Below are positions 37,621-64,000 of a stretch of 64,000 bases of DNA, piece after piece. The first letter of the stretch is position 1; every line of letters begins with the position of its first letter. Below the pieces are notes generated by a model. It saw only the letters and a program-made list of their open reading frames with translations, ran no database searches and was not told the origin of the DNA. A program made the translations under genes and the position numbers. The DNA is from an uncultured delta proteobacterium (GTDB lineage Bacteria > Myxococcota_A > Polyangia > Polyangiales > Polyangiaceae): NCBI GenBank assembly GCA_963716725.1, contig CAVQUB010000021.1, positions 352,001-416,000 on the forward strand, given 5' to 3'.

Positions 37621-38693
37621 CCAGACGCGGGCCTTTTACGGCCTGCAGTTTCATCCGGAGGTGACCCACACGCGCCAGGGCGGGCGCATCCTCGAGCGTT
37701 TCCTGTTCGAGATCTGCGGCTGCGAGGCCTGTGGAATCCGCGCAGCATCATCGATGACGGCATCCAGCAGCATGCGCGAGCAGATCGGCGACGGCCGCGT
37801 GGTTCTCGGCCTGTCCGGCGGCGTCGATTCGTCGGTGGTGGCGGCGATGCTGCACCGGGCAGTCGGCGACCGACTGGTCTGCGTGTTCGTCGACAACGGC
37901 CTGCTGCGCCTGCACGAGGGCGACCAGGTGATGGCGACCTTCGCCGAGCACATGGGCGTTAATGTCATCCGGGTGAATGCCGAGGACCGCTTCCTCAAGG
38001 GCCTCAAGGGCGTGGCCGATCCGGAGCAGAAGCGCAAGATCATCGGCAACCTGTTCATCGATATCTTCGAGGAGGAGGCGGCCAAGCTCGAGGACGTGGC
38101 ACTTCCTGGCACAGGGCACCATCTACCCGGACGTGATCGAGTCGGCCGGCGCCGCATCGGGCAAGGCGCACGTGATCAAGTCGCATCACAATGTCGGCGG
38201 TCTGCCGGACTACATGAAACTCCAGCTGGTCGAGCCGCTGCGCGAGCTGTTCAAGGACGAGGTGCGGCGGATCGGCGTCGAGCTGGGCCTGCCCTCCGAG
38301 ATGATCTACCGCCATCCGTTCCCGGGCCCTGGGCTGGGCGTGCGCATCCTCGGCGAGGTGCAACAAGGAGTACGCCGACATGCTGCGCCGGGCGGATGCG
38401 ATCTTCATCGAGGAACTGCGCAAGGCCGATCTGTACGACGAGGTCAGCCAGGCCTTCGCGGTGTTTCTGCCGGTCAAGTCGGTCGGCGTGGTCGGTGACG
38501 CACGGCGCTACGAGTACGTGATCACGCTGCGCGCGGTGAAGACCGTCGATTTCATGACCGCGCAGCTTCGCCCATCTGCCGTTCGAGTTTCTCGAGCAGG
38601 TTTCGCAGCCGCATCATCAACGAGGTGAACGGCGTCTCGCGCGTGGCCTACGATATCTCGAGCAAGCCGCCGGCCACGATCGAGTGGGAGTGA
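37621..38693 (+). CDS. guaA: GMP synthase (glutamine-hydrolysing), 3' part, with several indels
   Basis: [55 protein letters not shown] and [10 protein letters not shown] are spread over several frames. Confidence 0.95.
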
Positions 38694-38845
38694 CCGGAAT
38701 TTTTAACACATTGATTTAAAACGATAAAATAAATCCAATTGATAATATAATCTGCATCGTCAATGGTATTTTTCATGGTATTTCCGAGTGCTGTAAGGCA
38801 GAAAGCAGCAATACCATGAGTGGCAGATTGGCGTAATCATGGTAT
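38676..38845 (+). repeat. att site 1 (attL-like): guaA core + right arm
   Basis: ACGATCGAGTGGGAGTGA; IHF-like TAACACATTGATT; AATGGTATTTTTCATGGTATT at 38762; ATACCATG-N19-CATGGTAT at 38811-38845. Confidence 0.9.
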
Positions 38846-38882
38846 CAGCGGTCGGCACTCAGATATCGCGTTCTGAACGAGC

Positions 38883-38958
38883 ATGGCGTGATTTAGGGCT
38901 TTAAGCACGCCAAATATGACTATAATGTGGCGTGAATAAGTGCTAGAATCGCGCCATG
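38883..38958 (+). promoter_or_regulatory. Tandem TGGCGTG...CACGCCA inverted-repeat operators upstream of fic
   Basis: Two palindromes flank a TATAAT; the same arrangement recurs at ~63,586-63,661. Confidence 0.6.
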
Positions 38959-40102
38959 AAGTGGATATGGCAACAGCCCGACTGGCCAGATTTTCGCTAT
39001 GACAATCGCGCGCTCAATGATCGGGAACTTGAATTTCGCCTGAACTCAGAGCGCCTGGCGGGCAGCTTTGATGCGCTACCGATGGCGTCCCAAGAGGATG
39101 CCACGATTGACTTGATGCTTTCCGAGGCCATCAAAACCAGCGCCATTGAGGGCGAGGATCTGGACAGAGAGTCGGTCAGGTCATCGCTGCTCTCTTTAAT
39201 TACATCGGATACGCTACCGGACAACTCAGACCAGAAAGCTGCTGGGGCTGCATCGCTGCTGGTGGACGTTCGCAAGAACTGGCAAACATCCCTGACGCAT
39301 GACCTGCTGGGCAAGTGGCAGTCCATGGCTGTCCCGGAGCAGCGCTACACGTCTATTCTGCGTGGCGCATACCGCAACGATCCTTCACCGATGCAAATAG
39401 TGAGCGGGCCTTACGGGCGGGAAAAGGTTCACTATGAGGCCCCGCCAGCGACTCAGGTGCCTGATGAAATGGCGAAGGCTTATCGACTGGTACAACCAAA
39501 CCAGTCCTTTGAGCGGGGATAAGACAATACACGGGATCGCAAGAGCAGGTATTGCTCATCTCTGGTTCGAGGTGATTCACCCCTTCGATGATGGTAATGG
39601 TCGAGTCGGCAGGGCGATCGCTGACCATGCGCTTTCGCAGTCTCTCGGCTATCCAACCACGGCTTGTCTTGCCACGGCGATAGAGGGGGATAAAAAAACC
39701 TATTACCTGCAACTGGAGAAAGCGAGTCGTGGAAGCCTGGATGTTAACGTTTGGCTGGATTATTTCGCAGACACAATAATCAAGGCACAGGAAATTGCCA
39801 GGGAAGAAGTGGACTTTGTACTGGCCAAGACACGTTTCTACGAAGCCTATGGCGACCAGCTGAATGACCGGCAGGCCAGGATGGTATCGCGGGTATTCGC
39901 TGAAGGTCGAAAGGGCTTTGAAGGCGGAATAACGACTAAAAAATATGAAGCGATTACCAAGTGTCCCAATCGAACGGCCAGCCGTGATCTTTCTGACCTG
40001 GTTGCCAAGGGTATCATCATCCCGTTACCAGGTGGTGGCAGAACAACCCGATATGAGTTGACGATTGTTGAACCGGCTCAGTCTGGTCTGATGAGGAAAT
40101 GA
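38956..40102 (+). CDS. Fic family protein (DUF4172-like N-terminus, Fic motif, C-terminal HTH); frameshift near 39,480
   Basis: MKWIWQQPDWP; HPFDDGNGRVGR; TASRDLSDL; split over two ORFs. Confidence 0.85.
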
Positions 40103-40174
40103 TTTTCTTCGCTCTGGAGCGAGCGATTTTATCTGCACAAGCCTGAACGATTTAATGAATTTCCATTTTGTCCT

Positions 40175-41551
40175 ATGAACGTCGATACACTCAAAGAAAA
40201 ACTGGCTGATATCGATGCAGATACCTTGCGGAATTTTATATTCGACCTCTACCTCCGCTATCCGGAGTTGAGCGACAAGATCGAAGCATTGACATTGGCA
40301 AATGATCCGGTCGCCCTGTCCAGGGTGCTGCGCAAGCGTATTGCATCGCTGAAACGAGGGCGGAGGTTTATCGATTATCGGGCGAGTTTTGATTTTGCAC
40401 GCGAACTGGAAGCGACCCTCGCCGACATTGAAAGCGGACTGCTGGAGCGCTCACCGGAACATGCGTTTGATTTGGTCGACCGGTTCCTGGCGACGGCAGA
40501 ATCGGTGCTCAACCGTGTCGATGATTCTGGCGGGGCAGTGGGCGAGGTATATCGCCAAGCCGTACTGTTGTGGTTGACGGCGGCTAAAGGCTGGCGGGAT
40601 GCCAACGTCGACTGGCTCGAGCGGATATATCAGCTGTATCAGCAGAATGATTATGGTGTGCTTGATCCGCTATTGCCAAATGCCAACCTGCTGTTGACGC
40701 CGGATCAGCTGAAGCAACTTGCCTGGCGGTACGAAAACGCGTTGCGCAAGGCGTTAAAATCTCCCGAACAAGAAGACAAACTCAATCTCGTGGCCTTGCG
40801 TAGCGGCGTGGCATTAGGACAGATAGCCGATGCCTTGCGTGATCCTGCCTTATACGAGCGATCGGTATTGATACATTCGCCACAGCCAAACAATCTGCAA
40901 ATGAAATCGATTTGTGAAAAATATTTGCAGTATGAGCAGCCCGAGACGGCAATGCGTTATCTGAACCAGGCATGGGAGGACCGTTTTGAGCGTGATCGTC
41001 TGGAATTGCTGGATAAGGTCTGTGTGAAAACGGGTGACCGGAAACAGCTTAAAGTGATTCGTTCTCGGCTGTTTCAGAGCGAGCAGAGCTACCCCAGTTT
41101 CACGCGATATCTGGAGGCCTTGGACGAGGATGAGAAAGAGAAAGCGTGTAGCTCAGCAATCAAGCAAGCCGAACAGAGTGGCAATATCGTACTCAGCGCA
41201 GATCTGTTATTAAACCTGAGCCAGACGGAGAGAGCTCAGGCCTTAGTCTTAGCTCGGCATCAGGAGTTGGCGGAGTGTTTTTATGACAGTCTGCTGAGGC
41301 TGGCCAAGGCGTTTGAAAAAGCGGATTGCAATCTGGCGGCTACGGCGTGCTACCGCGCCTTGTTGCTGGATATCCTGGCACAGGCGCGCAGTAAGGCTTA
41401 CGGCCATGGTGCACGGTACTATAAAAAGCTGGAAGCGCTGGCGAAGCGGATCAAGGAATTCAAACCACTGCCAACACATCACGCCTTCGTGCAGCAATTG
41501 CACTCGGCGCATGGGCGAAAGAAAAGTTTTTGGGCGCGACTGGAATCATGA
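40175..41551 (+). CDS. All-helical hypothetical protein (DUF6880-like)
   Basis: RVDDSGG motif; C-terminal KAYGHGARY...HGRKKSFW. Confidence 0.7.
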   Translation: MNVDTLKEKLADIDADTLRNFIFDLYLRYPELSDKIEALTLANDPVALSRVLRKRIASLKRGRRFIDYRASFDFARELEATLADIESGLLERSPEHAFDLVDRFLATAESVLNRVDDSGGAVGEVYRQAVLLWLTAAKGWRDANVDWLERIYQLYQQNDYGVLDPLLPNANLLLTPDQLKQLAWRYENALRKALKSPEQEDKLNLVALRSGVALGQIADALRDPALYERSVLIHSPQPNNLQMKSICEKYLQYEQPETAMRYLNQAWEDRFERDRLELLDKVCVKTGDRKQLKVIRSRLFQSEQSYPSFTRYLEALDEDEKEKACSSAIKQAEQSGNIVLSADLLLNLSQTERAQALVLARHQELAECFYDSLLRLAKAFEKADCNLAATACYRALLLDILAQARSKAYGHGARYYKKLEALAKRIKEFKPLPTHHAFVQQLHSAHGRKKSFWARLES

Positions 41552-41616
41552 TGTGCCGAAGCCTGCAGCACGGCATGGGGTGGCTTCTCGACATTTCCGG
41601 TGAGTATCAGCAGCAA

Positions 41617-41717
41617 TTTCTGAACATGGTATTTTTCATGGTATTACCGATTAGCAGGAAAATAAGCCATTGAATATAAAAGATAAAAATGGCTCGTTTA
41701 CAATCGAGTGGGAGTGA
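41617..41717 (+). repeat. att site 2: left arm + core; right arm absent
   Basis: CATGGTATTTTTCATGGTATT at 41625; ACAATCGAGTGGGAGTGA at 41700-41717; no ATGGTAT boxes downstream. Confidence 0.9.
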
Positions 41718-41898
41718 CTGGCACTCGCAGGCAACTACAGGAACCAAAAGCACAAAAACTTGCGTAATTCATCAGTCGGCTGGAACTATCTCTGGAATAT
41801 CGGCGAGCGGAACAGAGGGTGACAGCCCCATCTTCCAAATCCTGACGTGGACGTCGGCGAAGCGTTTTGACGTCTGTAAGTGCGGATTTCTTGCTCAT
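41718..41898 (-). pseudogene. Decayed N-terminus of a ferritin-like/bacterioferritin gene
   Basis: MSKKSALTDVKTLRRRPRQDLEDGAVT...RLMN...CLR resembles the LTDV.TLR.RARQ..E.GAVT N-terminus of proteobacterial ferritin-like proteins. Confidence 0.5.
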
Positions 41899-42197: not shown

Positions 42198-43835
42198 CTA
42201 GCGGGCCAAAGCACGTGCAACTGCAATGGACGTGAGCGGGTGGTACTGCCCGAAATACATCGGCGGCGGCACCAGCGACGGTTTGACGAATTTTTTCACC
42301 GCCTGGATCGCGCCCAACACACTGTACTCCGTGGTGAACACAATCCCCTTGGGAATCTCTACAAACTGCCCAAGGAGCGCGAAGTTCTTTGAACCCGCCG
42401 GCACCACCGCGGGCCGGTCGCCCTTAGCTCTGCTGAGAAACTGGCTGGTGCTGTAGGGCAGCAGGCAAGGGATGCAGGTGGAGGTGTCGAGGATCTCATT
42501 TTTCTCCCCCTCGTCCTGGTCGAACTGCAGGTGACCCAACAACTCCTCCAGAATCTCGCGACCTGTGCACTCGGGCATGGTCTTCTTCACGAACGTGCCA
42601 ATGTTGTCGCCGCCTAGTGCCGTCACCCAGATGACGCACGTATCGCGGGGTTGGTCGGGGAACAGGGGCTGGCGGTACGTGTGCAGGTGCAGGATCCACG
42701 GGGACGCTGTGATGGGCAGCGGGCTCTGACGACCCATCTGGCGCTCCACCAACCACTCGAACTTGCGCTGGAACAATCCGCCGCGAAAGGTGACGGTGAA
42801 GGTCATCATCGTGGACTGCGAGATGTCGCGCAGGAACTGGTCGGGGCGGCCGAAGTCGGGCTGCTTGGCGGCAATCTTCTTCCACAGCGTCCACGCTCCG
42901 CCCAGGTTCTGGCTGCCGACCGCGGGCTTGTCCACCGGGCGGTCATGGGCACCGAACGAGGCGTTGCTGACGATGGAGCCGATGGTCAGGAAGACGAGGT
43001 CGGTGTCGCGCACCTGGATAGAGGGCTTTGCCTTGCCGCTCTCAGTCTCGAGGTGGATGCGCTCAATCCACCTCTCCTTGCCGCCGGAGTGCATTTTGAA
43101 GTCTACGTCTGAGATCCTGCAGTTGTAGTGGAAGTTCACGCCCTTCTTCTGCATGAAGCGCAGGGCGGGCAGTATAAAAGAATGGAAGTTGGTATAGCGA
43201 GTACGCTCCAAAGCGACCATCGTGTTCATGTTTGGCATCTCGTGAAAGAAGAGGTGCATGTAGCGCTTCATCTCGACCGCTGAATGCCACGGCTGGAAGG
43301 CAAAAAGTGCCCGCCACATGTACCAGTAATTGCTGGTGAAAAAGGCTTCTCCAAAGATGTCCGTAATCTTTGCACCGTCTGGAATCAAGAACTCTGGTGT
43401 GACCAGAAGTCTTGCCATCTTCAATTTTTCAGCAGTGTTGAGACCAAGTTGATATCCGGTGTCCTTCTTACCATTCTCATGCAGAAGGCGAACGACAGTG
43501 TGAACTCTGCATTCTTCACGGTTCTTCTGATGGTCTTGTAGACACGATTCATCATCGTTGTACGGAATAATGGACCACAGTTCTTTGGTGCAGGGATATA
43601 CCTTGTCTTCAAACATGCGACTGCCTTGCATAAAGTACGCCGGTTGGTCGTTCACTATCATCTCTGAGGCATCACAGCTTCCTCCAACAAGGTCCTTGTC
43701 GCCCTTTTGCTCAAAGATATGGATATTGGATGGATTAAAGTCTGCCTTCTGGATCAAATACATTGCAGCAGCAATGGAGCCCAAGCCGAGACCATTAAGA
43801 TAAACGTTGACGGAAGAATCTTCTTTGTTTTTCAT
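42198..43835 (-). CDS. Oleate hydratase (MCRA family), divergent
   Basis: GLGLGSIAAAMYL, FAFQPWHSAVE, GDRPAVVPAGSKNFALLGQFVE and FTTEYSV motifs. Confidence 0.85.
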   Translation of the reverse strand: MKNKEDSSVNVYLNGLGLGSIAAAMYLIQKADFNPSNIHIFEQKGDKDLVGGSCDASEMIVNDQPAYFMQGSRMFEDKVYPCTKELWSIIPYNDDESCLQDHQKNREECRVHTVVRLLHENGKKDTGYQLGLNTAEKLKMARLLVTPEFLIPDGAKITDIFGEAFFTSNYWYMWRALFAFQPWHSAVEMKRYMHLFFHEMPNMNTMVALERTRYTNFHSFILPALRFMQKKGVNFHYNCRISDVDFKMHSGGKERWIERIHLETESGKAKPSIQVRDTDLVFLTIGSIVSNASFGAHDRPVDKPAVGSQNLGGAWTLWKKIAAKQPDFGRPDQFLRDISQSTMMTFTVTFRGGLFQRKFEWLVERQMGRQSPLPITASPWILHLHTYRQPLFPDQPRDTCVIWVTALGGDNIGTFVKKTMPECTGREILEELLGHLQFDQDEGEKNEILDTSTCIPCLLPYSTSQFLSRAKGDRPAVVPAGSKNFALLGQFVEIPKGIVFTTEYSVLGAIQAVKKFVKPSLVPPPMYFGQYHPLTSIAVARALAR

Positions 43836-43903
43836 TTTGGTGTACCTTTCCTTTATTTATCCTTCTCGGTAAAAATCACAAGACTGACATTGAAGAAGCG
43901 TGG

Positions 43904-45673
43904 TCAATCGCCCGTGACAAGCCCGAACTCGCGCAGCAGTGCGCCGATCTGGGTCTTGTCAAGCTTGTTCATCAGCAGGTTACGCAGGAACGCAGGCCCC
44001 GGGACGTCGATCTCCTTGCCGTCGCGTAAGCGGCCGGTCGCACCCAGAAGCATGCGGATGTCGTAGGTGGAGTTGAAGACCTCCGGCACGCCACGCTCGA
44101 CGTCAAGCAAGGTATAGACAGCTTCCATCGGCGTTCGCACGGAATACTCAGTTGTGAAGATGCAGTCGCGCTCCCTGGACTCCGCGAACTGACCAATGAA
44201 GGCGAAGTTGACCGCGCCCTCGGGCACCACGTCTGGACGATCGCCAGCCTGGCGTGGCATGAAGAAGGCCGTCACGTACGGCATCATCACCGGAATGGTG
44301 ATGGCGCCGGTTGCGGCCAGCTCAGGGATGTCCTCGACCGGTACGCCCAGATGGTAGAGCCATTCCTGGGTGATTTCCTCGCCCGTGCAGTCCTGCATGG
44401 GCTTCTTCACGTAGTCACCCGGCTTCTCGACGAACAGCCCGTAAACCCACACCACGATCTGGTCCTTGGGCTGGGCCTTGAAGTGCGGCTGTCGGTTTAC
44501 CGTCCAACTGAGCAGCCAGGATGAGTCCCTCGCGGTCACGATGCCGCCAGTCACCACCTTGCCGCTGAACGGATCGCGCTTGGCGATCTTCTGGATGTAC
44601 TTCGGGATGCGCGCATCGAGCGTGGTGACGGTGGCCGACTCCCATTTGGTCTCGGGGATGTGCGCGCCGAACACCTCCGGGCGCCCGAACGCCGGATCCT
44701 TTGCGGCGATGCGCCGCCAAAGATCCCACGCCGGTGCAGGACCCACATTGAGATTTGGCGGTGTGTGGTGGTCGCCGTTGTCGGAGTTCTCGGTGAGCGA
44801 GCCGATGGTCATGAACACCAGGTCGTCCGGGCCAAGATCGACGCCGCCTTCAACGGCGTCCCTGCGCCAGTGGATGCGCTTGGCCTGTTTGCGTCCGGGT
44901 GCGATGTCGAAGTCGACATCGGTCACCTCGGTGCCGTAATGGAACACCACGCCGTGATCAAGCAGCCACTTAACCAGCGGCAGCACCAGCGATTCGTACT
45001 GGTTGTACTTGGTGAACTTCAGCGTGGAGAAGTCCGGCATGCCTTTGATTTGGTGTATGAAACGGTGCAGGTACAGCTTCATCTCCAGCGCCGAGTGCCA
45101 CTCCTCGAAGGCAAACATCGTGCGCCAGTACAGCCAGAAATTGCTGTTCAGGAATTCCTGACCGAACACCTCATTAATGCGCTTGTTCTCCATTTCTTCG
45201 CGGGTGGCCAGGAAGAGCTTGACGATCTCTTTTTGCGCCTGCTCGCTGAGCGTGAACAGGCCGTCGGTATGCGCGTCCTCGCCCCGATTCATGGTGGCGC
45301 GCTGCAAAGAGGAGTTCGGATCGTCCTTGTCGAGCCAATAGAACTCGTCGAGTACACTGGCACCCTCGATCTCCAGCGACGGGATTGACCGGTACAAATC
45401 CCACAGGCATTCGAAGTGCTCTTCCATCTCGCGCCCGCCCCGGATGACAAAGCCCTTCTCCGGCTCCTTGATGCCGTCCAGCGCGCCACCGGGCAAGTGT
45501 TGCTGCTCCAGGATGGTGATTTGCTTGCCGGGCATCTGACCGTCGCGGATCAGAAAGGCCGCGCCCGCCAGTGCCGCCAGACCCGAGCCGACGAACCAGG
45601 CCGTTTTGTTCTCTACGCCTTTGGGTTTGCGCGGGCGGGCGAACGCTTCGTAGTTGCCGTTGCTGTAGTACAT
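43904..45673 (-). CDS. ohyA: Oleate hydratase (myosin-cross-reactive antigen)
   Basis: MYYSNGNYEAFARP, GSGLA, RGGREME, KFTKYNQYES and FTTEYSVRT motifs. Confidence 0.92.
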   Translation of the reverse strand: MYYSNGNYEAFARPRKPKGVENKTAWFVGSGLAALAGAAFLIRDGQMPGKQITILEQQHLPGGALDGIKEPEKGFVIRGGREMEEHFECLWDLYRSIPSLEIEGASVLDEFYWLDKDDPNSSLQRATMNRGEDAHTDGLFTLSEQAQKEIVKLFLATREEMENKRINEVFGQEFLNSNFWLYWRTMFAFEEWHSALEMKLYLHRFIHQIKGMPDFSTLKFTKYNQYESLVLPLVKWLLDHGVVFHYGTEVTDVDFDIAPGRKQAKRIHWRRDAVEGGVDLGPDDLVFMTIGSLTENSDNGDHHTPPNLNVGPAPAWDLWRRIAAKDPAFGRPEVFGAHIPETKWESATVTTLDARIPKYIQKIAKRDPFSGKVVTGGIVTARDSSWLLSWTVNRQPHFKAQPKDQIVVWVYGLFVEKPGDYVKKPMQDCTGEEITQEWLYHLGVPVEDIPELAATGAITIPVMMPYVTAFFMPRQAGDRPDVVPEGAVNFAFIGQFAESRERDCIFTTEYSVRTPMEAVYTLLDVERGVPEVFNSTYDIRMLLGATGRLRDGKEIDVPGPAFLRNLLMNKLDKTQIGALLREFGLVTGD

Positions 45674-45899
45674 GGGGGACTCCCTTGGTTGAGGTTGCAG
45701 CGACAGCCGTGGCGCGCGGGGTCTGCTGCGTGTAGGCGATGGCACCGACGCGGCGCTTGAACTTCGCGCCGAAGTTGAGCCCGTCCTGCACATGACATGT
45801 GCGCGACAACTCTTTCGCAGCAAGTTTACGACCGAGCCTGCGTGTGCGTCTGTGCGGTGCCGTACGTCTTCAGCCAAGCTGGAGCGCAGGCTCTGGCCA

Positions 45900-55559: not shown

Positions 55560-55747
55560 ATTATGTGCCGTTCATCGAACGGTTCTTTGACACCCGGACG
55601 GTGGACTTCGTACATGGCGTGGAAATCATTGCGCTGGGCATGGCGCTTTTTATGATTCTTGAACTGGAAAAACTCGCACTGCGCAAGTGGCGCAGGAAGC
55701 ACGATGGCCGCCACGGCAGTGCAGGGCGGAGCGAGGCCAAATCATGA
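55560..55747 (+). pseudogene. C-terminal remnant of another P-type ATPase
   Basis: YVPFIERFFDTRTV...GMALFMILELEK parallels YLPVMNWLFHTAPI...GLVIYLAIGAEK of the upstream ATPase. Confidence 0.55.
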
Positions 55748-57411
55748 CGGTGTTCCCGGACGTGTTCACTGAGATGGCGGTGCTGCTGCTGTTTGCCGCG
55801 GCGGTGGGTGCTCTGGGCGTACGCCTGCGCCAGCCCTTGATCGTCGCCTTTATCGCTGTGGGAATAATGGTTGGCCCGTCGGTGCTCGGTTGGGTCAGTG
55901 CGAACGACAAGGTCGATTTGCTGGCAAAGTTCGGGATCACGCTGCTGCTGTTCGTCGTTGGCTTGAAACTGGACCTGCACATTATCCGCACCATGGGGCC
56001 GGTCGCCCTGGCGACGGGACTCGGCCAGGTGATATTCACCAGCGTCGTCGGCTACCTGATCGGTTACGCCTTTGGCATGACGCCGGTCACGGCCCTGTAT
56101 GTAGCGGTCGCGTTGACATTCTCCAGCACCATCATCATCGTCAAATTGCTTTCCGACAAACGCGAGGTGGATACGCTGCACGGTCGAATCGCCCTGGGTT
56201 TCCTGATCGTGCAGGATCTGGTCGTCGTGTTGGTCATGATTGGCCTGAATGCCCTGGGTGCCAGCGGTGATGTCTCGTGGACCCAAGCGGCATTCGCCGT
56301 ACTAGTCAAGGGTGTGGGGTTTCTTCTGCTGGTCGGGTTGGCGATGCGGTACCTGCTACCGCGGCTGCTCCACATGCTGTCACGCTCCCAGGAATTGCTG
56401 GTGTTGTTCGGCATTGCCTGGGGATTAGCCTTGGCGGCCCTTGGGGTGACGCTCGGTTTCAGCAAGGAGGTGGGTGCCTTTGTCGCCGGCGTGTCACTGG
56501 CCTCCACGCCTTACCGGGACGCCCTCGGCGCGCGCCTGACGAGCGTGCGCGACTTTCTGTTGCTGTTCTTCTTTCTCGACCTGGGGGCGCAACTCGACCT
56601 GGGGCTGCTGGGTGCCCAACTGGTGGAGTCGCTGGTGTTCTCGCTGTTCGTCCTGATCGGTAATCCCCTCATCGTCATGGTCATCATGGGCGTACTGGGT
56701 TATCGCAGTCGTACCGGGTTCCTGGCCGGGCTCACGGTGGCGCAGATCAGCGAATTCTCCTTGATCCTGGGGGCGCTGGGTCTGAGCCTCGGCCACATAA
56801 GCGCCGAGACCATGGGCCTGATAACCCTGGTCGGGTTGATCACCATCAGCGCCTCTACGTACATGATCATCTATTCTCATCCGCTGTATGAGCGCCTGGC
56901 GCCCTGGCTCGGGGTCTTCGAGCGCCGACAGCCTCATCGGGAGGCCGTGCAGGATAGCGTGCCGGATGATGCGGTGCCATTGGTCGTGTTGTTCGGGCTG
57001 GGGCGTTACGGCAACGGCATCGCCCGGACGTTGCGTGAAAGGGGCTGGCGGGTGCTCGGCGTCGATTTCAACCCGGACCTGGTTCGCGCGGGAGACGCCA
57101 CGGGACACCCGGTCATGTTCGGAGATGCCGAAGATCCCGAGTACATCGCAACGTTGCCGCTTGGACGAACACATTGGGTAGTGAGTACAGCGCGTGAACG
57201 CCACGTCAATCTATCGCTTATCCACTCGCTGCGCAGTCTCGGTTACAGCCGCCGGATCGCTATTACGGTGCAATCGCCGGATGACGCGGCCAGACTGGAA
57301 CATGCGGGCGCCGATCTGATTCTGGTGCCGTATGCGGACGCCGCCCGCGAGGCGGCTGATCGTATCATGGGGCCGGGATATGAGCCGCAACCGTTACAGG
57401 AGGCGCAATGA
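55744..57411 (+). CDS. CPA2 cation:proton antiporter with TrkA-N domain (Kef-like)
   Basis: Multi-TM; QISEFS; GLGRYG...GDAED motifs. Confidence 0.9.
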   Translation: MTVFPDVFTEMAVLLLFAAAVGALGVRLRQPLIVAFIAVGIMVGPSVLGWVSANDKVDLLAKFGITLLLFVVGLKLDLHIIRTMGPVALATGLGQVIFTSVVGYLIGYAFGMTPVTALYVAVALTFSSTIIIVKLLSDKREVDTLHGRIALGFLIVQDLVVVLVMIGLNALGASGDVSWTQAAFAVLVKGVGFLLLVGLAMRYLLPRLLHMLSRSQELLVLFGIAWGLALAALGVTLGFSKEVGAFVAGVSLASTPYRDALGARLTSVRDFLLLFFFLDLGAQLDLGLLGAQLVESLVFSLFVLIGNPLIVMVIMGVLGYRSRTGFLAGLTVAQISEFSLILGALGLSLGHISAETMGLITLVGLITISASTYMIIYSHPLYERLAPWLGVFERRQPHREAVQDSVPDDAVPLVVLFGLGRYGNGIARTLRERGWRVLGVDFNPDLVRAGDATGHPVMFGDAEDPEYIATLPLGRTHWVVSTARERHVNLSLIHSLRSLGYSRRIAITVQSPDDAARLEHAGADLILVPYADAAREAADRIMGPGYEPQPLQEAQ

Positions 57412-57432
57412 TTCTGAACCGGGAGGGAGCAT

Positions 57433-57939
57433 ATGAATAAGACGGATCAAGGTCTTGATTGGTCGACGGTCGTGTCGCGGGCGCTGCTGTTCTCAATCAT
57501 GTGGTGGGCGCTCACCGATGGTACGGCCGGGTCCTTGTGGATCGGTGTGCCGGCGGTGATATGTGCGACGGTCGTCAGTGTGGCGCTGGTACCGCCGTTA
57601 GGTCTTGTCTGGAGGGAAGTGATGGGATTTGTACCCTTCTTCCTTTGGCATTCGCTGAAAGGGGGCGTGGATGTGGCGTGGCGGGCGTTTCATCCGCGTC
57701 TGCCAATCACGCCGGAACTTATTGAGTACCCGCTTCGACTGCCGCCAGGCCTGCCAAGGGTGATCCTGGTCAATACGGTGAGCTTGCTGCCGGGTACGCT
57801 AAGCGCGGAACTGGGTGGCCAAGTATTGAAGGCTCATGTATTGGATAGTCTGGGAGACTTTCTGGCTGAACTGGAGACTTTGGAACAACGCGTGGGGTGC
57901 ATGTTTAGAAGCGCCTCTGATGATTTCCCGCGGAGGTGA
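57433..57939 (+). CDS. mnhE: Mrp/Mnh Na+/H+ antiporter subunit E
   Basis: GGVDVAWRAFHP...NTVSLLPGTLS...HVLD. Confidence 0.85.
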   Translation: MNKTDQGLDWSTVVSRALLFSIMWWALTDGTAGSLWIGVPAVICATVVSVALVPPLGLVWREVMGFVPFFLWHSLKGGVDVAWRAFHPRLPITPELIEYPLRLPPGLPRVILVNTVSLLPGTLSAELGGQVLKAHVLDSLGDFLAELETLEQRVGCMFRSASDDFPRR

Positions 57940-58928
57940 ATGAGATGCAACGATTCAAAAAGATTCTTTGTGTAATGGAACATGGGGAGGCCAGTAAGCC
58001 CGCATTGGAAAGGGCGGTGGCACTGGCCGAGAACAACCAGGCTGAACTGATGGTTGTGGATGTGATTCCACGCTTATCGGCCGGTATCGGTATGCCCGAT
58101 GGCAGCCCGATCTCTCGAGACTACCAGGCGGCAATGGTGAGCGAGCATGAAGCGCGGATAGCGGCCCTTGTTGAACCATACCTTCAACGACTTGATATCC
58201 AGCACAAGGTGTTGCTGGGGACATCCTTTCTCGAGGTCATCCGAGCGGTATTGCGCAACGGGCATGATCTGGTGATCAAGTGTCCCGAATCGCCGAGCTG
58301 GCTGGATCGCTTTTTCTCCGGTGACGACATGCACCTGCTGCGTAAGTGTCCCTGCCCCGTCTGGCTTGTCAAACCTGAGGCACCCAGATCCTATAAACGC
58401 ATCCTGGCAGCCGTGGATGTGGATGAATCGTATTTGCCAACGGAGCTGGCGACACGGCACGCATTGAACGTTCAAATTCTGGAAATGGCGGCCTCCCTGG
58501 CGCTCTCGGAGTTCGCCGATCTGCATGTTGTGCATGTCTGGGATTCTGTTTACGAATCAATCAGCGGTTTTGTTATTTCATCAGATATATCGCCAGAGAA
58601 AGAAGCCTTGAATGTTGAACAAGAGCGGAGACAGCATCAACAGTGGCTGGACACATTTTTGCGCAACAGTGGGAACAAAGCGACCCGGGATGCCCTGGGC
58701 TATCTCAAGTCCCAAACCCACCTGATAAAAGGGGGAGCCCGCAAGGAAATCCCGGCGCTGGCCAAACGTTTGCAGGTCGACTGCATCGTCATGGGGACCG
58801 TGGCACGTACGGGTATTCGCGGCTTCTTCATGGGCAATACTGCGGAGACCATTCTCGAGCAGATCGATTGCTCGGTGCTGGCGATCAAACCGCCCGGCTT
58901 CGTCACCCCCGTCGCTCTGGAGGATTGA
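57936..58928 (+). CDS. Universal stress protein (UspE-like, tandem domains)
   Basis: DMHLLRKCPCPVWLVK and MGTVARTGIRGFFMGNTAE motifs. Confidence 0.9.
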   Translation: MNEMQRFKKILCVMEHGEASKPALERAVALAENNQAELMVVDVIPRLSAGIGMPDGSPISRDYQAAMVSEHEARIAALVEPYLQRLDIQHKVLLGTSFLEVIRAVLRNGHDLVIKCPESPSWLDRFFSGDDMHLLRKCPCPVWLVKPEAPRSYKRILAAVDVDESYLPTELATRHALNVQILEMAASLALSEFADLHVVHVWDSVYESISGFVISSDISPEKEALNVEQERRQHQQWLDTFLRNSGNKATRDALGYLKSQTHLIKGGARKEIPALAKRLQVDCIVMGTVARTGIRGFFMGNTAETILEQIDCSVLAIKPPGFVTPVALED

Positions 58929-58934
58929 TCGGGC

Positions 58935-59660
58935 ATGCAGCCTCTTTACCTGGCACTGTTTCTGCTGCTGAACCTGGGTGCCGGCATGTGGCGGGTCTTA
59001 CGTGGTCCGACCGCCGCTGATCGTATGCTGGCCGCGCAGCTGTTAGCGATGGCGCCGCTCGGCCTGGTTTGGGTAATGGCCGGGCTGGTGCCGGCGATAA
59101 CGATCTTGTTGGCTATGGCGGTCATCGCCTTGCTGGCGGGTAACAGTCTTTTTCATGGGGATATCGACTTGTCGGCTGAATCGGTAGGGAAATACGCACC
59201 TTCAGCAGCACCGGCTTCACGCCCTTGTAAGGCCCCGTTCATTTCAACATGGGTGGTTGCTGCACTGATCGTGGTCGCGACGCTTGCAGCAGGTTACCAA
59301 CTCTTCCACGTCACAATAGGGGAAGCCGTCATGGGCCGCTTTATTGTCCTGGCGTCCATATCAATGGCAGTTCTGAACGCGAGATGGCGCGTGCTTCGAC
59401 TGCCGGTCTTTGCTCCAGGTGATGTCCTGGTACCCATCACCCAAGGTTTGGTGCTGGCCAGAGAAGGGGCTGGCCGATTACTTGCCCACTGTGTGGAACG
59501 CTGGACTGAAATCACGCAGGCACTGGATCGGCATGTGCGATCCCTCATGACGAGAAGCGATATCGCCGGATTGCTGGAAGAGATGCTCCTTCGTTGGAGC
59601 CCTGCGCTGTCGCTGTTGTTGCTGCTGGGGTTATTGGTTGCATGGTTGGCGGCATCATGA
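58935..59660 (+). pseudogene. Fusion of an MnhF N-terminus to the tail of a large Mrp-type subunit (deletion product)
   Basis: WRVLRGPTAADRMLAAQL is MnhF-like and is abruptly followed by an unrelated membrane sequence with a PGD motif. Confidence 0.55.
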
Positions 59661-59838
59661 TGTGTTTCGGAAAGTCGTTCATCTGGCAGAAGGCATCGAT
59701 AATGAAACACCCGTTCGCACCACACTGCTGCTCTACAAGGCGAAAACCTTGCACGGTGTCGGGCTTCTGGCGTGATCCTTTGAGCCTGTTCGACTTTACC
59801 GTTATGGCGATCGCGCAATCCGACGCGGGGCGAGCTCG

Positions 59839-62523
59839 ATGAAGCTTGAACTTGACTTGGAAAGGCAAGCAATTACTGCCTGGCACACCTTGAAGGCGGA
59901 CGAGTGCGCCTCGCGGTTGCAAGTGGAGGCCGCGAACGGGCTGGATCCGGCGGAGGTGCAGGAGCGCCTGGAGCACCATGGCGAAAACCGTCTTGCCGAG
60001 AAGCCACCACGGCCCAAATGGCTCGCCTTCCTTGATCAGTTCAAGAGCCTTCTGATCCTGGTGTTGGTCGGGGCCGCCTGGCTGGCGGGCGCCATCGGCG
60101 ATATCAAGGACGCGGTGGTGATCATGATCGTGGTATTGTTCAATGCGTTGCTCGGCTTCTGGCAGGAACGCCGGGCCGAGCAAACATTGGCGGCGCTTAA
60201 GAAAATGCTCTCGCCAGCGGCCCGTGTGCGCCGCGGAGGCCGTGTCGAGGAGATCGACGCCAGGTATCTGGTGCCGGGAGACGTCGCGTTACTGGTAGCG
60301 GGTGGCCGGGTGCCGGCGGATGGTCGGCTGCTGGTCACCCACAATGCCGAGGTCGACGAGTCCGCGCTCACTGGCGAGTCCCACCCGGTGGGCAAAGAGG
60401 CGTACGGGCTGCTCCCGGACAAGGCACCGCTGGCTGAACGCACCAACATGGCCTTCATGAACACGGTAGTTACCCGTGGACGGGCGGAATTGCTGGTGAC
60501 CGGCACCGGTATGGCCACCGAGATGGGGCGGCTCTCCGATATGTTGGCCGAGGCGGAGCCCGGCCCCACCCCGCTTCAGGTCCAGCTCGACGGGCTTGGT
60601 CACCGGCTGGCGCTAATCGCCGGCGTGGTGATCACGCTGATCTTCTCCCTGGGATTGCTACGGGGCGAGCCATTGGTGCAGACCGTCCTCACCTCTATCG
60701 CATTGGCGGTGGCCGCCATACCGGAAGGTTTGCCGGCCGTGGTGACGTTGACACTCGCCATCGGCATGCACCGCATGGCCCGGCACCGTGCCATCGTCAA
60801 GAAGTTGGCTGCGGTGGAAACCCTCGGCTGCACCACGGTTATCTGCTCGGACAAGACCGGCACCCTCACCCTGAACCAGATGACCGCGCGCGCCCTGGTC
60901 TACGGAGGACGGCGTTTTGCGGTCTCCGGTGAGGGTTACGCCGCAGAGGGAATGATCGAAGCAGAGGACGGCAGCCTGCTGCCGGCTCTCGAGCCGCTAC
61001 TGCATCCAGCGGCGCTGGCTAATGACAGCCGCATTCGCGACGGGCAGCTGATCGGTGATCCCACCGAAGGGGCATTGCTAGCACTGGTGGCCAAAGGCGG
61101 GCTGGATGTTGAGTCACTAGCGGCGCACCATCCGCGCATCGCCGAGATCCCCTTCGATTCAGCACACAAATTCCAGGCCACCTTCCACCAAGATGGCGAA
61201 TTGGTGCACCTCTACGTGAAAGGCGCGCCGGACGTGCTGCTCGCCCGCGCAAGCCGCCAGCTCGAACCCGACGGTGCCCGCCCGCTGGATGCGGGTTACT
61301 GGCAGGCCGAGAACGAACGGCTCGCCGGCAGCGCCATGCGGGTCTTGGCGGTGGCCGCCAAGACCCTCCCGGCAAAGGCGTTCGACCCGGCTGGCGATTT
61401 GATGGTCCATGTGGCCGAGCTCGATTTTGCCGCGCTGATCGGCATCATCGACCCGCCGCGCCCGGAGGCACGCGATGCCATCGCCCTGTGCCGACGCGCC
61501 GGGATTGAGGTCAAGATGATCACCGGCGACCACAAGATTACCGCCGCCGCTATCGCCCGGGAACTGGGGCTGGAGGGCGAGGTGATCGAGGGGTGGGAGC
61601 TGGATGCGCTTTCGGCAGAGACGCTGGCTACGAAGATCAAAGACATTGCTGTGTTTGCTCGTGTCGCCCCAGAGCACAAGGTGCGCATCGTGCAGGCGCT
61701 GAAGGCCGACGGCCACGTCACTGCCATGACCGGCGATGGGGTCAACGACGCCCCGGCGCTGAAACACGCCGATATCGGTGTGGCCATGGGCGTAACCGGT
61801 ACCGAGGTGACCAAGGAAGCGGCCACCATGGTACTGACCGACGACAACTTCGCCACCATTGTGCGGGCGGTCAGGGAGGGACGCGCCATCTACGACAACA
61901 TCGTCAAGTTCGTGCGCTTCCAGCTCTCCACCAACATGGGTGCCATCCAGACCGTGCTGGGCGCGAGCCTGCTGGGCTGGTCCACGCCATTCACCGCGAT
62001 CCAGATCTTGTGGATCAACATCATCATGGACGGCCCGCCGGCCATGAGCCTGGGCGTGGAGCCCGCGCGCGACGGGATCATGGACGAGCCGCCGCGACAG
62101 ACTGATGCCCGCATACTGACCGGGCCGAGGCTGGGGCGCCTGCTTGTTTACGGTCTGACCATGGCGGTCGGCACGCTGGGTCTGTTCCACTACGCCCAGC
62201 CCCGGGGCGAGGCCTATGCCCTGACGCTGGCCTTTACCACCTTCGTGCTGTTCCAGTTCTTCAACCTGTTTAATGCCCGCGCCGAGCACGGTTCGGCGTT
62301 CAATGGTCACTTCTTCCGTAACCGCTGGATATGGCTCTCCTTGGCGGCGGTGCTGACGCTGCAGGCATTGGTTGTCCATTGGGCGCCCTTGCAAGACGTA
62401 TTCGGCACCGCCGACCTGCAGCTTTCGGACTGGGGTTTATCAGCGTTGGTCGCTTCAAGCGTGCTGCTGCTGGACGAGGGACGCAAGCTGATTCTGCGGC
62501 TGTCCACAGGTGGTTCGCGATGA
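59839..62523 (+). CDS. Cation-transporting P-type ATPase (close relative of 22729..25428)
   Basis: DKTGTLT, YDNIVKFVRFQLSTN and INIIMDGPPAM motifs. Confidence 0.95.
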   Translation: MKLELDLERQAITAWHTLKADECASRLQVEAANGLDPAEVQERLEHHGENRLAEKPPRPKWLAFLDQFKSLLILVLVGAAWLAGAIGDIKDAVVIMIVVLFNALLGFWQERRAEQTLAALKKMLSPAARVRRGGRVEEIDARYLVPGDVALLVAGGRVPADGRLLVTHNAEVDESALTGESHPVGKEAYGLLPDKAPLAERTNMAFMNTVVTRGRAELLVTGTGMATEMGRLSDMLAEAEPGPTPLQVQLDGLGHRLALIAGVVITLIFSLGLLRGEPLVQTVLTSIALAVAAIPEGLPAVVTLTLAIGMHRMARHRAIVKKLAAVETLGCTTVICSDKTGTLTLNQMTARALVYGGRRFAVSGEGYAAEGMIEAEDGSLLPALEPLLHPAALANDSRIRDGQLIGDPTEGALLALVAKGGLDVESLAAHHPRIAEIPFDSAHKFQATFHQDGELVHLYVKGAPDVLLARASRQLEPDGARPLDAGYWQAENERLAGSAMRVLAVAAKTLPAKAFDPAGDLMVHVAELDFAALIGIIDPPRPEARDAIALCRRAGIEVKMITGDHKITAAAIARELGLEGEVIEGWELDALSAETLATKIKDIAVFARVAPEHKVRIVQALKADGHVTAMTGDGVNDAPALKHADIGVAMGVTGTEVTKEAATMVLTDDNFATIVRAVREGRAIYDNIVKFVRFQLSTNMGAIQTVLGASLLGWSTPFTAIQILWINIIMDGPPAMSLGVEPARDGIMDEPPRQTDARILTGPRLGRLLVYGLTMAVGTLGLFHYAQPRGEAYALTLAFTTFVLFQFFNLFNARAEHGSAFNGHFFRNRWIWLSLAAVLTLQALVVHWAPLQDVFGTADLQLSDWGLSALVASSVLLLDEGRKLILRLSTGGSR

Positions 62524-62557
62524 TCTGTACTGTTGCGTTATGTGGGTATTGCATAAG

Positions 62558-62573
62558 GTAACATAAATGCTAC
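62558..62573. promoter_or_regulatory. Palindromic operator of the TA operon
   Basis: GTAACAT-aa-ATGCTAC just upstream of the toxin start. Confidence 0.45.
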
Positions 62574-62585
62574 TATATAGGTCAT

Positions 62586-62918
62586 ATGATAGAGGTTAGA
62601 GAATACCTCGATGCTGAGGGAAACAGTCCTTATGCCAAATGGTTCGATCGTCTGAATGTGACCGCTGCGGTCAAGGTGGCGACGGCAGTTCATCGGATGG
62701 AGCTGGGTAACTTATCTAATGTTAAAGGTGTGGGTGCCGGCGTCTATGAGTACCGAATCGATTTTGGTCCTGGCTATCGAATCTACTTTGGCAAGGACGG
62801 AGACCGCTTGGTGATATTGCTCGCGGGTGGTACCAAGAAGCGGCAGGACGCAGACATTGCTGCTGCAAAAGAGCACTGGCGCGGCTATAAGCGCCGCAAA
62901 CGGCAAGAGGTGACATGA
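62586..62918 (+). CDS. Type II toxin, RelE/ParE (HigB-like addiction module killer)
   Basis: GVYEYRIDFGPGYRIYF...LLAGGTKKRQDADI. Confidence 0.9.
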   Translation: MIEVREYLDAEGNSPYAKWFDRLNVTAAVKVATAVHRMELGNLSNVKGVGAGVYEYRIDFGPGYRIYFGKDGDRLVILLAGGTKKRQDADIAAAKEHWRGYKRRKRQEVT

Positions 62919-63241
62919 TGGCTCTGACGAAAGATTTTAAGGACACCATACAGGCACGTGCCCAACGGGATCCCGCGTTTCGCAAGGCCCTGCTACAAGA
63001 AGGGGTCGAATGCCTGCTCGCTGGTGATGTCGATACCGGCAAGGCGGTATTGCGCGACTATATCAACGCGACGATCGGGTTCGAGGAACTCTCCCGGGTC
63101 TTCGACAAGTCGAGTAAGAGTTTGATGCGTATGTTCGGGCCGAAAGGGAATCCCCAGGCGAGTAACCTGTTTGCGGTGATCAATTACCTGCAGGAGCAGG
63201 AGGGGGTACGCCTGGAAGTCAAAGCCCGGAAAGTGGCCTAG
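62915..63241 (+). CDS. HTH antitoxin (toxin-first organisation)
   Basis: Overlaps the toxin stop; GFEELS...KSLMRMFGPKGNP. Confidence 0.85.
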   Translation: MMALTKDFKDTIQARAQRDPAFRKALLQEGVECLLAGDVDTGKAVLRDYINATIGFEELSRVFDKSSKSLMRMFGPKGNPQASNLFAVINYLQEQEGVRLEVKARKVA

Positions 63242-63293
63242 GGTGTTGTTTAGAAGTGTTCAAGCGGCAATTTTTTCGAGTATTTTGAAGGAT

Positions 63294-63547
63294 TTTCTGA
63301 GCATGGTATATTTCATGGTATTAACAATTAGCAGGAAAAAAAGTCATTGAAAATGAAAGACAAAAATGGCTTGTTTACAATCGAGTGGGAGTAGGGTGTA
63401 TTAGCAACTCATTGAAATATAGCGATAAAACAACTCTAATTAATAATATAATCTGCATCATCAATGGTATTTTTTATGGTATTTTCTGCGGCTGGCAGAG
63501 CTAAAATCAGCGATACCATGAGAGGCGAACTGATGCAGTCATGGTAT
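63294..63547 (+). repeat. att site 5: left arm + core (TAG variant) + right arm
   Basis: ACAATCGAGTGGGAGTAG at 63377-63394; arm boxes at 63302, 63463, 63513 and 63540. Confidence 0.92.
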
Positions 63548-63658
63548 TTTCAAAGCGCCGTTTAGATTCCAGTCTTTGATCCAGGATGGCGTTATTGCGG
63601 GCTATAATCGCGCCATATATCCATGTAATATGGCGTGAATAAGTGCTAGAATCACGCC

Positions 63659-64000
63659 ATGAGATGGATATGGCAACAATCCTATTGGCCCGATTTCTGC
63701 TACGACGTGCTTGCTCTCGAACACCGGGAGCTTGAGTTTCGCCTGAACTCAGAGCGTCTGGCGGGCAGCTATGATGCACTTCCTGTGGCATCTCAAAAGG
63801 ATGCCACGATCGACTTGATGCTTTCCGAGGCCATCAAAACAAGCGCCATTGAGGGCGAGAAATTGGACAGAGAGTCGGTCAGGTCGTCGCTGCTCTCATT
63901 AATTACATCTGATACGCTACCGGACAACTCAGACCAGAAAGCTGCTGGGGCAGCTTTGCTTCTGGTGGATGTTCGCAAGAACTGGCAAACATCCCTGTCA
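63659..64000 (+). CDS. Second Fic family gene (start of cassette 5), runs off the right edge
   Basis: MRWIWQQSYWPDF...DLMLSEAIKTSAIEGE...; open to the window end and highly similar to the gene at 38956. Confidence 0.85.
   Translation, partial: MRWIWQQSYWPDFCYDVLALEHRELEFRLNSERLAGSYDALPVASQKDATIDLMLSEAIKTSAIEGEKLDRESVRSSLLSLITSDTLPDNSDQKAAGAALLLVDVRKNWQTSLS

Follow-up and report, generated by a model that had tools for sequence, protein, structure and literature searches.

A likely tandem array of integrase-less gene cassettes with GIsul2-family attachment sites behind a guaA relic

We analyzed a 64,000-nucleotide stretch of DNA from an uncultured delta proteobacterium (Polyangiaceae; positions 352,001 to 416,000 of contig CAVQUB010000021.1), hereafter the window, in which a series of gene units is stacked behind the 3' end of a guaA gene. 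Our analyses indicate that this locus is likely a genuine tandem array of four complete cassettes and a fifth cut by the window end, all of them integrase-less, bounded by attachment (att) sites of the GIsul2 family and mobilized in trans. The reading is carried by the anatomy of the sites, by the lack of recombinase genes and recombinase relics in the array, and by the reordering of homologous cassettes in other genomes with breakpoints at the core of the sites.

The 13-mer ATCGAGTGGGAGT occurs five times in the window, on the + strand only, at 38679, 41703, 47109, 51140 and 63380, exactly where a preliminary description made from the letters of the window had placed it; shuffling gives an expected count of 0.04, and five copies were reached in 0 of 100 shuffles. 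The crossover core is the 8-bp GAGTGGGA, with five copies in direct orientation, the first of which ends the guaA relic. The core-to-core spacing (3,024, 5,406, 4,031 and 12,240 bp, with 621 bp from the last core to the window end) agrees with the unit sizes proposed earlier, while the accompanying statement that the units carry unrelated cargo needs one correction, as a Fic gene opens both unit 1 and unit 5 (82% identity over 595 bp). The tandem order is that of the assembled contig sequence. Alignment of the five core neighborhoods revealed conserved AT-rich DNA over ~120 bp to the left of the core at sites 2–5 and over ~230 bp to its right at sites 1, 3, 4 and 5, and G+C content ranges from 30–42% in these arms to ~50–66% in the cargo and 63–73% in the DNA left of 38.5 kb. 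Array genes occur on both strands, each with its own upstream region, and because the genes (one to ~nine per cassette) lie on either strand, they presumably have their own promoters. A scan of the window for transfer RNA and transfer-messenger RNA genes found none, and no Rfam family reached its gathering score over 38–64 kb.

For the description of the sites, the left arm was named P and the right arm P', with positions counted from the first base of GAGTGGGA. The octamer CATGGTAT was found 18 times in 64 kb against 0.42 expected, and all 18 copies are inside att modules. Each P arm has two direct CATGGTAT sites at -80/-68, and each P' arm has direct sites at +81/+93, an inverted site at +130 and a further direct site at +158, positions that are fixed in 52 P arms and 31 P' arms from other genomes. 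The motif WATCAANNNNTTR, which we take to be the consensus of integration host factor (IHF), occurs five times in the window (0.32 expected); the P' arms of sites 1, 3 and 4 each have one copy at core+22, and the exact motif is found at core+22 in 11 of the 31 P' arms of other genomes. Profiles for nhmmer, built from these 52 and 31 arms of other genomes only, detected exactly four P arms in the window (41587–41717, 47005–47123, 51015–51154 and 63256–63393; E values of 1e-18 to 4e-37) and exactly four P' arms (38679–38917, 47109–47340, 51139–51365 and 63379–63622; 5e-48 to 2e-63). They revealed no hidden or degenerate sites in unit 4 or upstream of guaA, with only short cross-hits within the same modules; because nothing else in the window scores with the arm profiles, unit 4 is without a hidden junction.

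Site 1 (38679–38917, + strand) is of the attL type and consists of the guaA end, a core at 38682–38689 and a P' arm (E = 2.1e-63) with CATGGTAT at 38774, 38811 (inverted) and 38838, the near-copy AATGGTAT at 38762 and an IHF-like sequence at 38704–38716. Sites 3, 4 and 5, all on the + strand, are attP-like. Site 3 (47005–47340) joins the P arm of unit 2 (E = 1.2e-18) through the core at 47112–47119 to the P' arm of unit 3 (E = 1.4e-58), with an IHF-like sequence at 47134–47146; site 4 (51015–51365) likewise joins the P arm of unit 3 (E = 3.5e-37) to the P' arm of unit 4 (E = 6.5e-49), with the core at 51143–51150 and an IHF-like sequence at 51165–51177; and site 5 (63256–63622) joins the P arm of unit 4 (E = 1.2e-34) to the P' arm of unit 5 (E = 5.2e-48) through the core at 63383–63390, where the next bases are GTAG instead of GTGA. 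Site 2 (41587–41775, + strand) departs from this pattern, so that the earlier claim of a conserved module around every core holds for the other four sites. It has the P arm of unit 1 (41587–41717; E = 1e-35; CATGGTAT at 41625 and 41637) and a core at 41706–41713, followed in place of a P' arm by a left end beginning GTGACTGGCACTCGCAGGCAAC, which we call class B. Class B ends comprise ~60 bp conserved in 13 sequences of related loci and are rich in TGGCA repeats; site 2 itself falls narrowly outside the search pattern for this class and is not among the 13. Compared with the CR2 terIS/attLR sequence given in the available passages of PMC9376610, the right flank of site 2 agrees at 17 of 19 bases.

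The preliminary description had also proposed that these are lambda/P4-type att sites rather than the attC hairpins of integrons. The arm and core anatomy is indeed of the P4/lambda type, and the module of site 4, the one of the five that was folded, gave z = -0.84 against shuffles, with 44 of 200 shuffles folding as well.

Searches for a recombinase in the window were negative by several routes. Pfam scans of the 21 long open reading frames (ORFs) of the window, and of 95 of the 143 stop-to-stop ORFs (at least 75 aa) overlapping 38.2–64 kb, returned no tyrosine or serine recombinase and no AlpA domain; the remaining 48 ORFs are eight long genes scanned earlier and 40 ORFs overlapping long genes with clear Pfam hits. 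The domains Phage_integrase, Arm-DNA-bind_3 and Phage_AlpA were absent among the scanned array ORFs, as were relaxase and rep relics among their Pfam hits. Nothing below E = 0.2 was found by tblastn of the whole window with the GIsul2 integrase (Int), the GIsul2 AlpA and the integrases of two related loci (L008 and L028, described below), and no integrase was found among ORFs of at least 200 aa in 1–38.5 kb. Pfam and tblastn therefore agree over 38.2–64 kb with the earlier statement that these ~25 kb hold no tyrosine or serine recombinase. A recombinase relic inside the units, which had been named beforehand as evidence that would speak against independent cassettes, was looked for by both methods and did not appear.

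Related loci were collected by one scan of genome contigs with the pattern ATGGYATNTTTYATGGTAT, which yielded at least 138 loci, with 2-kb flanks for 80 of them. The arm-core geometry is present in at least 78 loci (78 of the 138 matches listed). By record titles, all but one of these 78 hosts are Pseudomonadota, mostly Gammaproteobacteria (including Chromatiales, Competibacter, Thiodiazotropha and Porticoccaceae) with some Beta- and Alphaproteobacteria, and the other 60 listed loci, largely from unrelated phyla, were taken as chance matches. With the window and one Escherichia coli locus included, the census comprises at least 83 sites on 64 contigs: at least 16 of the form guaA-core-P', at least 21 of the form P-core-P' (18 of them on 14 contigs outside the window) and at least 46 of the form P-core-other. 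Many P-core-other sites end in GAGTGGGAATAA, GAGTGGGAATGA or GAGTGGGAATAG beside host genes, and in the E. coli locus (L004) attL is GAGTGGGAGTGA and attR is GAGTGGGAATAA. From these end sequences we infer that an incoming element supplies a new guaA end and that the native end is displaced to the far side of the array. The loci L012, L020 and L023 close in this way, with a P-core junction that carries the native guaA end beside a host gene.

Comparison of related genomes, which the preliminary description had suggested making with a profile of the att module, revealed the cassettes in other positions and orders. On the contig CAWEET010000020 (loci L019/L020) of a metagenome-assembled genome (MAG), a copy of unit 1 that is 98.3–98.4% identical spans from just past the P' arm to the base after the site 2 core; another unit precedes it and a host deaminase gene follows, making the unit 1 copy the last of that array. 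On CAVROQ010000019, a unit 3 homologue (92–94% identical, without window positions 47451–48494) has a unit 1 homologue (90%) directly behind it, and the junction between the two combines a unit-3-type P arm (0.88 to site 4) with a unit-1-type P' arm (0.97 to site 1). On CAVRBK010000130, a unit-3-type P' arm (0.98) lies directly behind guaA; the unit 3 homologues of these two contigs range over 92–98%. A Halioglobus MAG (L071) has a homologue of the right end of unit 4 and then a unit 3 homologue. These four arrangements indicate that the arms travel with their cargo and that neighbors are exchanged at the core, and in this respect the earlier notion of the units as independent cassettes is supported: counterparts of unit 1, of unit 3 and of the unit 4 right end appear elsewhere in a new order, each with its own arms.

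The cassette arms can be placed in a known family. The integrase of GIsul2 has a P4-type arm-binding domain. A sequence 86–94% identical to the cassette P arm was found on 3,940 of 72,556 plasmid records, and on pHH1107 and pAB3 this copy forms the sul2-side attR arm of GIsul2, in agreement with the available text of PMC9376610; the P arm of site 2 is 94% identical to that sul2-side arm. In GIsul2 on pAB3, the inner junction attLR has CATGGTAT/CATGGCAC at -80/-68 of the core, and the sul2-side arm has the identical site pair at the same positions. In the GIsul2 copy at guaA of an E. coli chromosome (L146), the attL has ATGG sites, counted from the core toward int, at +140, +152, +171 (inverted), +189 (inverted), +217 and +285, of which the subset +140/+152/+189/+217 has a spacing of 0/+12/+49/+77, equal to the spacing within the cassette P' arm. 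Because both the arm sites and their internal spacing match, the cassettes carry the GIsul2 arm-site constellation, and by sequence we assign the att sites of the window to the GIsul2 / P4-type guaA integrase family. At 385–700 of L146, the GIsul2 attL was seen to have TGGCA repeats by the core and CATGG sites further out; a cassette left end has one of these two parts, TGGCA in class B and CATGG in class A, as though it had retained half of the whole.

An experimental precedent for trans mobilization is available in this family: according to the accessible passages of Zhang et al. 2022 (PMC9376610), the CR2-sul2 unit, which has no integrase, is excised and integrated by GIsul2 Int via attLR x attR, and two tandem CR2-sul2 units at a guaA island of Aeromonas caviae are cited there. 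The earlier suggestion that one integrase acts in trans is strengthened by this precedent, while the helper itself was not found. By analogy, mobilization in trans by a GIsul2-family Int is the most likely explanation of the array. We propose that circular cassettes entered one after another, each at an att site already present at the guaA 3' end. Such repeated insertion would leave site 1 as an attL (guaA-core-P') and sites 3–5 as attP-like hybrids, each inner junction consisting of the P arm of the left cassette and the P' arm of the right cassette. A tyrosine integrase of the GIsul2 family, probably with a directionality factor of the AlpA type, would excise and insert the cassettes, and could be supplied by an integrative mobilizable element (IME) elsewhere in the genome or further along the array. 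For transfer between cells, the cassettes might ride in cis with an IME or an integrative and conjugative element (ICE) as cis-mobilizable elements (CIMEs; PMC5704250, in its accessible part), or might be taken up as DNA and inserted by Int. The helper's identity, excision at the present day and the transfer route are what we infer; the guaA copy would have decayed after the stacking.

The head of the array differs from what the preliminary description, which had the array stacked on the guaA 3' end, would suggest. Core 1 does lie in the last codons of guaA (IEWE-stop), and the gene copy in question is a relic (37634–38693, + strand) that covers GuaA residues ~193–543 only. It is 5'-truncated and frameshifted three or more times, with its coding sequence passing through frames 2, 3, 1 and 3; fragments of the Pfam domains GATase, NAD_synthase and GMP_synt_C lie in different frames, and tblastn with the GuaA of a Competibacterales MAG (L012) gave high-scoring segment pairs in frames 2 and 3. 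Its DNA is 72.6–80.1% identical to the guaA of nine other loci. Since the window also holds intact long genes (three for ATPases of ~900 aa and one, of 786 aa, from the xanthine dehydrogenase family), sequencing error is unlikely as the sole cause of these frameshifts. The organism must have a second, working guaA elsewhere, and the array may have been displaced along with the guaA fragment, or one of two guaA copies may have decayed. In the region 35973–38693, a GMC oxidoreductase gene without its C-terminal domain is fused ahead of the guaA fragment, the two having been joined by a deletion or rearrangement.

Several observations weigh against trans mobilization by a GIsul2-family integrase. 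An integrase with CATGGTAT arms was found neither in the window nor beside any cassette, so that the helper is hypothetical for this organism. The scan pattern was taken from integrase-less arms, and GIsul2's own arms do not match it; the scan is therefore biased against the helper and would miss GIsul2-like elements. The block of P' sites is 59 bp nearer to the core in the cassettes than in the GIsul2 attL. The two integrases that were found in related loci (L008 and L028) share 56% identity with GIsul2 Int, and the repeat in the P' region of each is a different one, GACGGTAAA. In the unit 1 copy of CAWEET010000020, the P' arm is 93% identical while the cargo is 98.4% identical, and because of this difference an exchange inside the arms by homologous recombination is likely. 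Finally, the signs of decay, namely the guaA relic, the split Fic gene of unit 1 and a fragment of an insertion sequence (IS) in unit 2, could mean a fossil array.

The last point leads to the alternative that survives best, which we nevertheless consider unlikely: the units would be CIMEs left from autonomous guaA islands after deletion of int and alpA, now immobile and vertically inherited. Besides the decayed genes (the IS fragment being of the IS1634 family), the absence of an integrase from 25 kb fits such an origin, and the accessible part of PMC5704250 gives decay with subsequent tandem accretion as the textbook way in which CIMEs arise. Against it, no int or alpA relic was seen down to E = 0.2, and all eight arms keep the full site constellation, scoring E <= 1e-18 against profiles built from outside. 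Outside the window, an integrase ORF comes after none of the 18 listed P' sites whose right flank extends for 1.9 kb or more; cargo starts directly after the arm. Moreover, because cassettes that are 90–98% identical occupy different positions in other genomes, their movement is more recent than any decay.

A second alternative dispenses with a site-specific integrase: the conserved arms, of ~120 bp and ~230 bp, would serve as homology for recombination, and the units would be exchanged mainly in this way, for instance when foreign DNA is taken up. The P arms of sites 2–5 are mutually 61–89% identical and the P' arms of sites 1, 3, 4 and 5 are 63–87% identical, sites 1 and 3 share 86 exact bases, and the arm of the unit 1 copy in CAWEET010000020 differs from its cargo as described above. 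Yet the longest exact matches between the other modules are 16–26 bp, which makes most arms a poor substrate for RecA, the junctions of other genomes switch cassette type between the arms, at the core, and the fixed arm-site geometry with an IHF-like site is a feature of intasomes. We regard this explanation as improbable.

Less probable still is an assembly artefact, in which single cassettes of strain variants were chained through a shared att module. The source does appear to be an assembly from uncultured material, and the frameshifts in several genes are a hint of sequence errors, but the shared exact stretches just given (16–26 bp, or 86 bp for sites 1 and 3) are too short at usual k-mer sizes to chain variants, at least 18 attP-like inner junctions are present on 14 independent contigs from other assemblies, and tandem CR2-sul2 units in an isolate are cited in the available text of PMC9376610. 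It is hardly credible that an integrase, a primary attI and a shared promoter reside just beyond the window and make this a true integron platform. Although the array runs off the right window end, its genes lie on both strands with their own upstream regions, the site folded has no attC-like hairpin, the far end of two related arrays (L012 and L020) is a host deaminase gene rather than an integrase, and three inspected E. coli genomes (of 82) have a single unit without a flanking integrase; with no resident integrase, attI or common promoter in view, the "integron-like platform" of the preliminary description is best kept as an analogy.

The integrase check in the family loci covered 172 of 177 ORFs of at least 150 aa (the other five being ORFs of locus L061) and found two integrases, those of L008 and L028. 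Both are P4-type, with the domains Arm-DNA-bind_3, Phage_int_M and Phage_integrase, and lie just right of a P-core junction. In L008 (1640–2080, - strand; Halioxenophilus aromaticivorans) and in L028 (1940–3575; a Competibacter MAG), the integrase comes after a P arm that does not differ from the sul2-side arm, and the GACGGTAAA repeats upstream of the two integrases are a second type of arm site on the same core. From their sequences, we read both loci as a different guaA element stacked behind a cassette.

In E. coli, a version of the P' arm was found in 82 of 5,426 complete genomes with 95.7–100% identity. The three genomes inspected among these 82 (L004, L144 and L145) each contain one integrase-less unit with two DUF262 genes, lying between guaA and yfgI, with no integrase on either side; in L004 both unit ends show the cassette arm architecture. 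The same DUF262 unit, together with guaA, is also on the plasmid pLGP4. The GIsul2 int gene is present in 454 of the 5,426 E. coli genomes and is full length in 38. Some matches were set aside: the P' arm of site 1 matched seven plasmid records, mainly by the guaA end or the core, and 11 E. coli genomes via a 44-bp stretch. The site 4 module matched eight phage records. In seven the match was confined to P arm and core, and in the eighth, from a Streptococcus phage, it was a weak 38-bp stretch around the core; none of the eight reached the P' arm.

The cargo of the window cassettes was annotated with Pfam and, where stated, other models. Unit 1 (38956–41551, + strand) has a Fic/DUF4172 gene (PADLOC SoFic), split into 38956–39522 and 39434–40102, and a DUF6880 gene at 40175–41551. 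The Fic gene (38956–40102) is split by a frameshift, and its 98% identical copy (L019, 2429–3166) is interrupted at another place; the interruptions may reflect independent decay or indel errors in both assemblies. Unit 2 (42198–46627, - strand) has two oleate hydratase genes at 42198–43835 and 43904–45877 (Pfam MCRA, NCBIfam), and an IS1634-family transposase fragment (46187–46627, - strand; NCBIfam) lies between these genes and the P arm and may mark how the cargo was captured. The oleate hydratase pair is 90% identical in DNA, across the genes only, to the plasmid pTs417 of Ca. Thiodictyon syntrophicum, where its annotated neighbors are unrelated genes, none of them an integrase.

Unit 3 (47385–50842, - strand) has three ORFs without a Pfam family (47385–48164, 47864–48637 and 48647–49414), an ORF with a SEC-C motif (49212–49541, - strand; Pfam) and an AAA_14/DUF4143 ATPase (49667–50842, - strand) that matches the PADLOC candidate system PDC-S01 with E = 1.2e-108. 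The ORFs at 47385–48164 and 47864–48637 overlap, and it is within this region that the CAVROQ010000019 homologue is without 47451–48494. The ORFs at 47385–49541, beside an ATPase of the PDC-S01 type, are possibly an undescribed defense module.

Unit 4 (12.2 kb; cargo at 52046–63241, + strand; Pfam and NCBIfam) encodes two P-type cation ATPases (52474–55191 and 59839–62523), a CPA2 antiporter with a TrkA-N domain (55687–57411), an MnhE-like protein (57433–57939), a tandem Usp protein (57936–58928), an ORF without assigned function (58935–59660), a RelE/ParE-type toxin (62586–62918; NCBIfam TIGR02683) and a 108-aa ORF behind the toxin (62915–63241), all on the + strand. A further P-type ATPase is encoded outside the array (22729–25428); its protein shares 60% identity with the second unit 4 ATPase and 42% with the first. 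The unit also has, ~0.9 kb inside and upstream of the P-type ATPase, a small helix-turn-helix (HTH) protein of the excisionase family (52046–52249, + strand; TIGR01764 'excise', E = 3.5e-21) that also matches the MADS1 HTH model; tblastn with the GIsul2 AlpA gave no match at this ORF. Its product might act as a directionality factor, might regulate the transport genes, or might do neither. The window ends inside unit 5 (63659–64000, + strand), which contains the start of the second Fic/DUF4172 gene (Pfam DUF4172).

Related arrays carry TOTE primase-helicase pairs, Wadjet JetC/JetD, HipA, AbiE, PIN, PLD and Fic proteins and PDC-S01 ATPases, as well as several genes without a known family. Units can be very small: in the Competibacterales MAG (L012, 1920–2970), guaA and the host deaminase gene flank a unit of 1,043 bp that has only two small ORFs between its P' and P arms, which from their translations alone resemble a ParE/RelE-like toxin and its antitoxin, and further very short units (822–1,273 bp) are present in three more contigs.

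A wider claim, which we advance tentatively and hold to be possible rather than probable, is that the cassettes are a distinct and widespread non-autonomous "att-only" class and not decayed islands, and that CR2-sul2 is a clinical offshoot of it. Members of this class would have a conserved ~350-bp attP with 2 + 4 arm sites around one to ~nine genes, would parasitize guaA-targeting P4-type integrases, and would form integron-like arrays of defense, toxin-antitoxin and stress genes in environmental Pseudomonadota. If this were true, the sul2-adjacent sequence on ~3,900 plasmids would be one arm of the class. Our comparison already places that sul2 flank (3,940 of 72,556 plasmid records) in a family context, as it has the same architecture as the right arm of environmental cassettes. 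Should the cassettes indeed move in this manner, a pool of units without a recombinase could draw on the site-specific integrases of genomic islands, which would be a second, integron-independent way to assemble and reshuffle adaptive gene arrays at a fixed chromosomal site. The related arrays would also be a good hunting ground for new defense genes, given their TOTE, Wadjet, AbiE, HipA, PIN, Fic and PDC-S01 cargo.

Our search of the full-text literature covered open text, with subscription journals and supplements outside its coverage. On integrase-less arrays at guaA it returned GIsul2/CR2-sul2, PIMEs, CIMEs and single guaA islands; within this open text, we found no conserved two-armed attP common to many integrase-less cassettes, no arrays of five or more integrase-less guaA cassettes, no description of the four-site P' arm of units 1, 3, 4 and 5, no defense or toxin-antitoxin cargo of such cassettes in environmental Pseudomonadota, and no link between the sul2 flank and the arm family. 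The general concept is already in print in the form of tandem, integrase-less, att-flanked CIMEs and of the CR2-sul2 unit.

Among known systems, chromosomal integrons resemble the window array in having small, exchangeable, recombinase-less cassettes at one locus, with toxin-antitoxin cassettes frequent among them. Unlike integrons, the window array has no IntI (in the scanned ORFs, 1–64 kb), attI or common promoter (Pc), its head is a guaA relic, its sites are ~350-bp double-stranded lambda-type att sites instead of attC, and its cassettes have one to ~nine genes on either strand. The tycheposon satellites of Prochlorococcus islands are likewise integrase-less cargo units in arrays, flanked by partial repeats of the target gene; their targets are tRNA genes and their recombinase family is different. 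CIMEs and tandem accretion were reportedly treated by Pavlovic in 2004. In the accessible part of PMC5704250, CIMEs (ICESt1 family, Streptococcus thermophilus) are att-flanked, lack recombination and transfer genes and accrete in tandem at one gene, as the cassettes do; they are presented there as the decayed remains of ICEs or IMEs, moving in cis together with a neighbor. The window array differs from them in that no relics of a parent were seen, though complete loss and never having been present look alike, and in that its arm family is conserved across many genera, with up to five units and no autonomous element in view.

The guaA gene is a hotspot of islands with P4 integrases, AlpA and the GAGTGGGA core (Song 2012, as cited in the accessible part of PMC7775301), and PIMEs are guaA islands with a P4 integrase according to the available text of a preprint (10.64898/2026.01.12.698999). 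GIsul2, PIMEs, the IncP island and ICERspD18B have the target (the guaA 3' end) and the core in common with the cassettes; they encode int, alpA and replication or transfer genes, of which the cassettes encode none. The closest counterpart is the CR2-sul2 unit, which like the cassettes is integrase-less and bounded by GAGTGGGA cores at guaA, has the same P arm at its right (86–94% identical, with CATGGTAT at -80/-68) and a class B sequence at its left, as in unit 2 (17 of 19 bases), and is on record in tandem copies (as cited in the available text of PMC9376610). In contrast to CR2-sul2, the window cassettes have no ISCR2 (rcr2) and no sul2, with no IS91/Y2 transposase or Pterin_bind domain by Pfam; units 1, 3, 4 and 5 have the full four-site P' arm at their left end, and the cargo of the family comprises defense, toxin-antitoxin, lipid and ion-transport genes in environmental Pseudomonadota.

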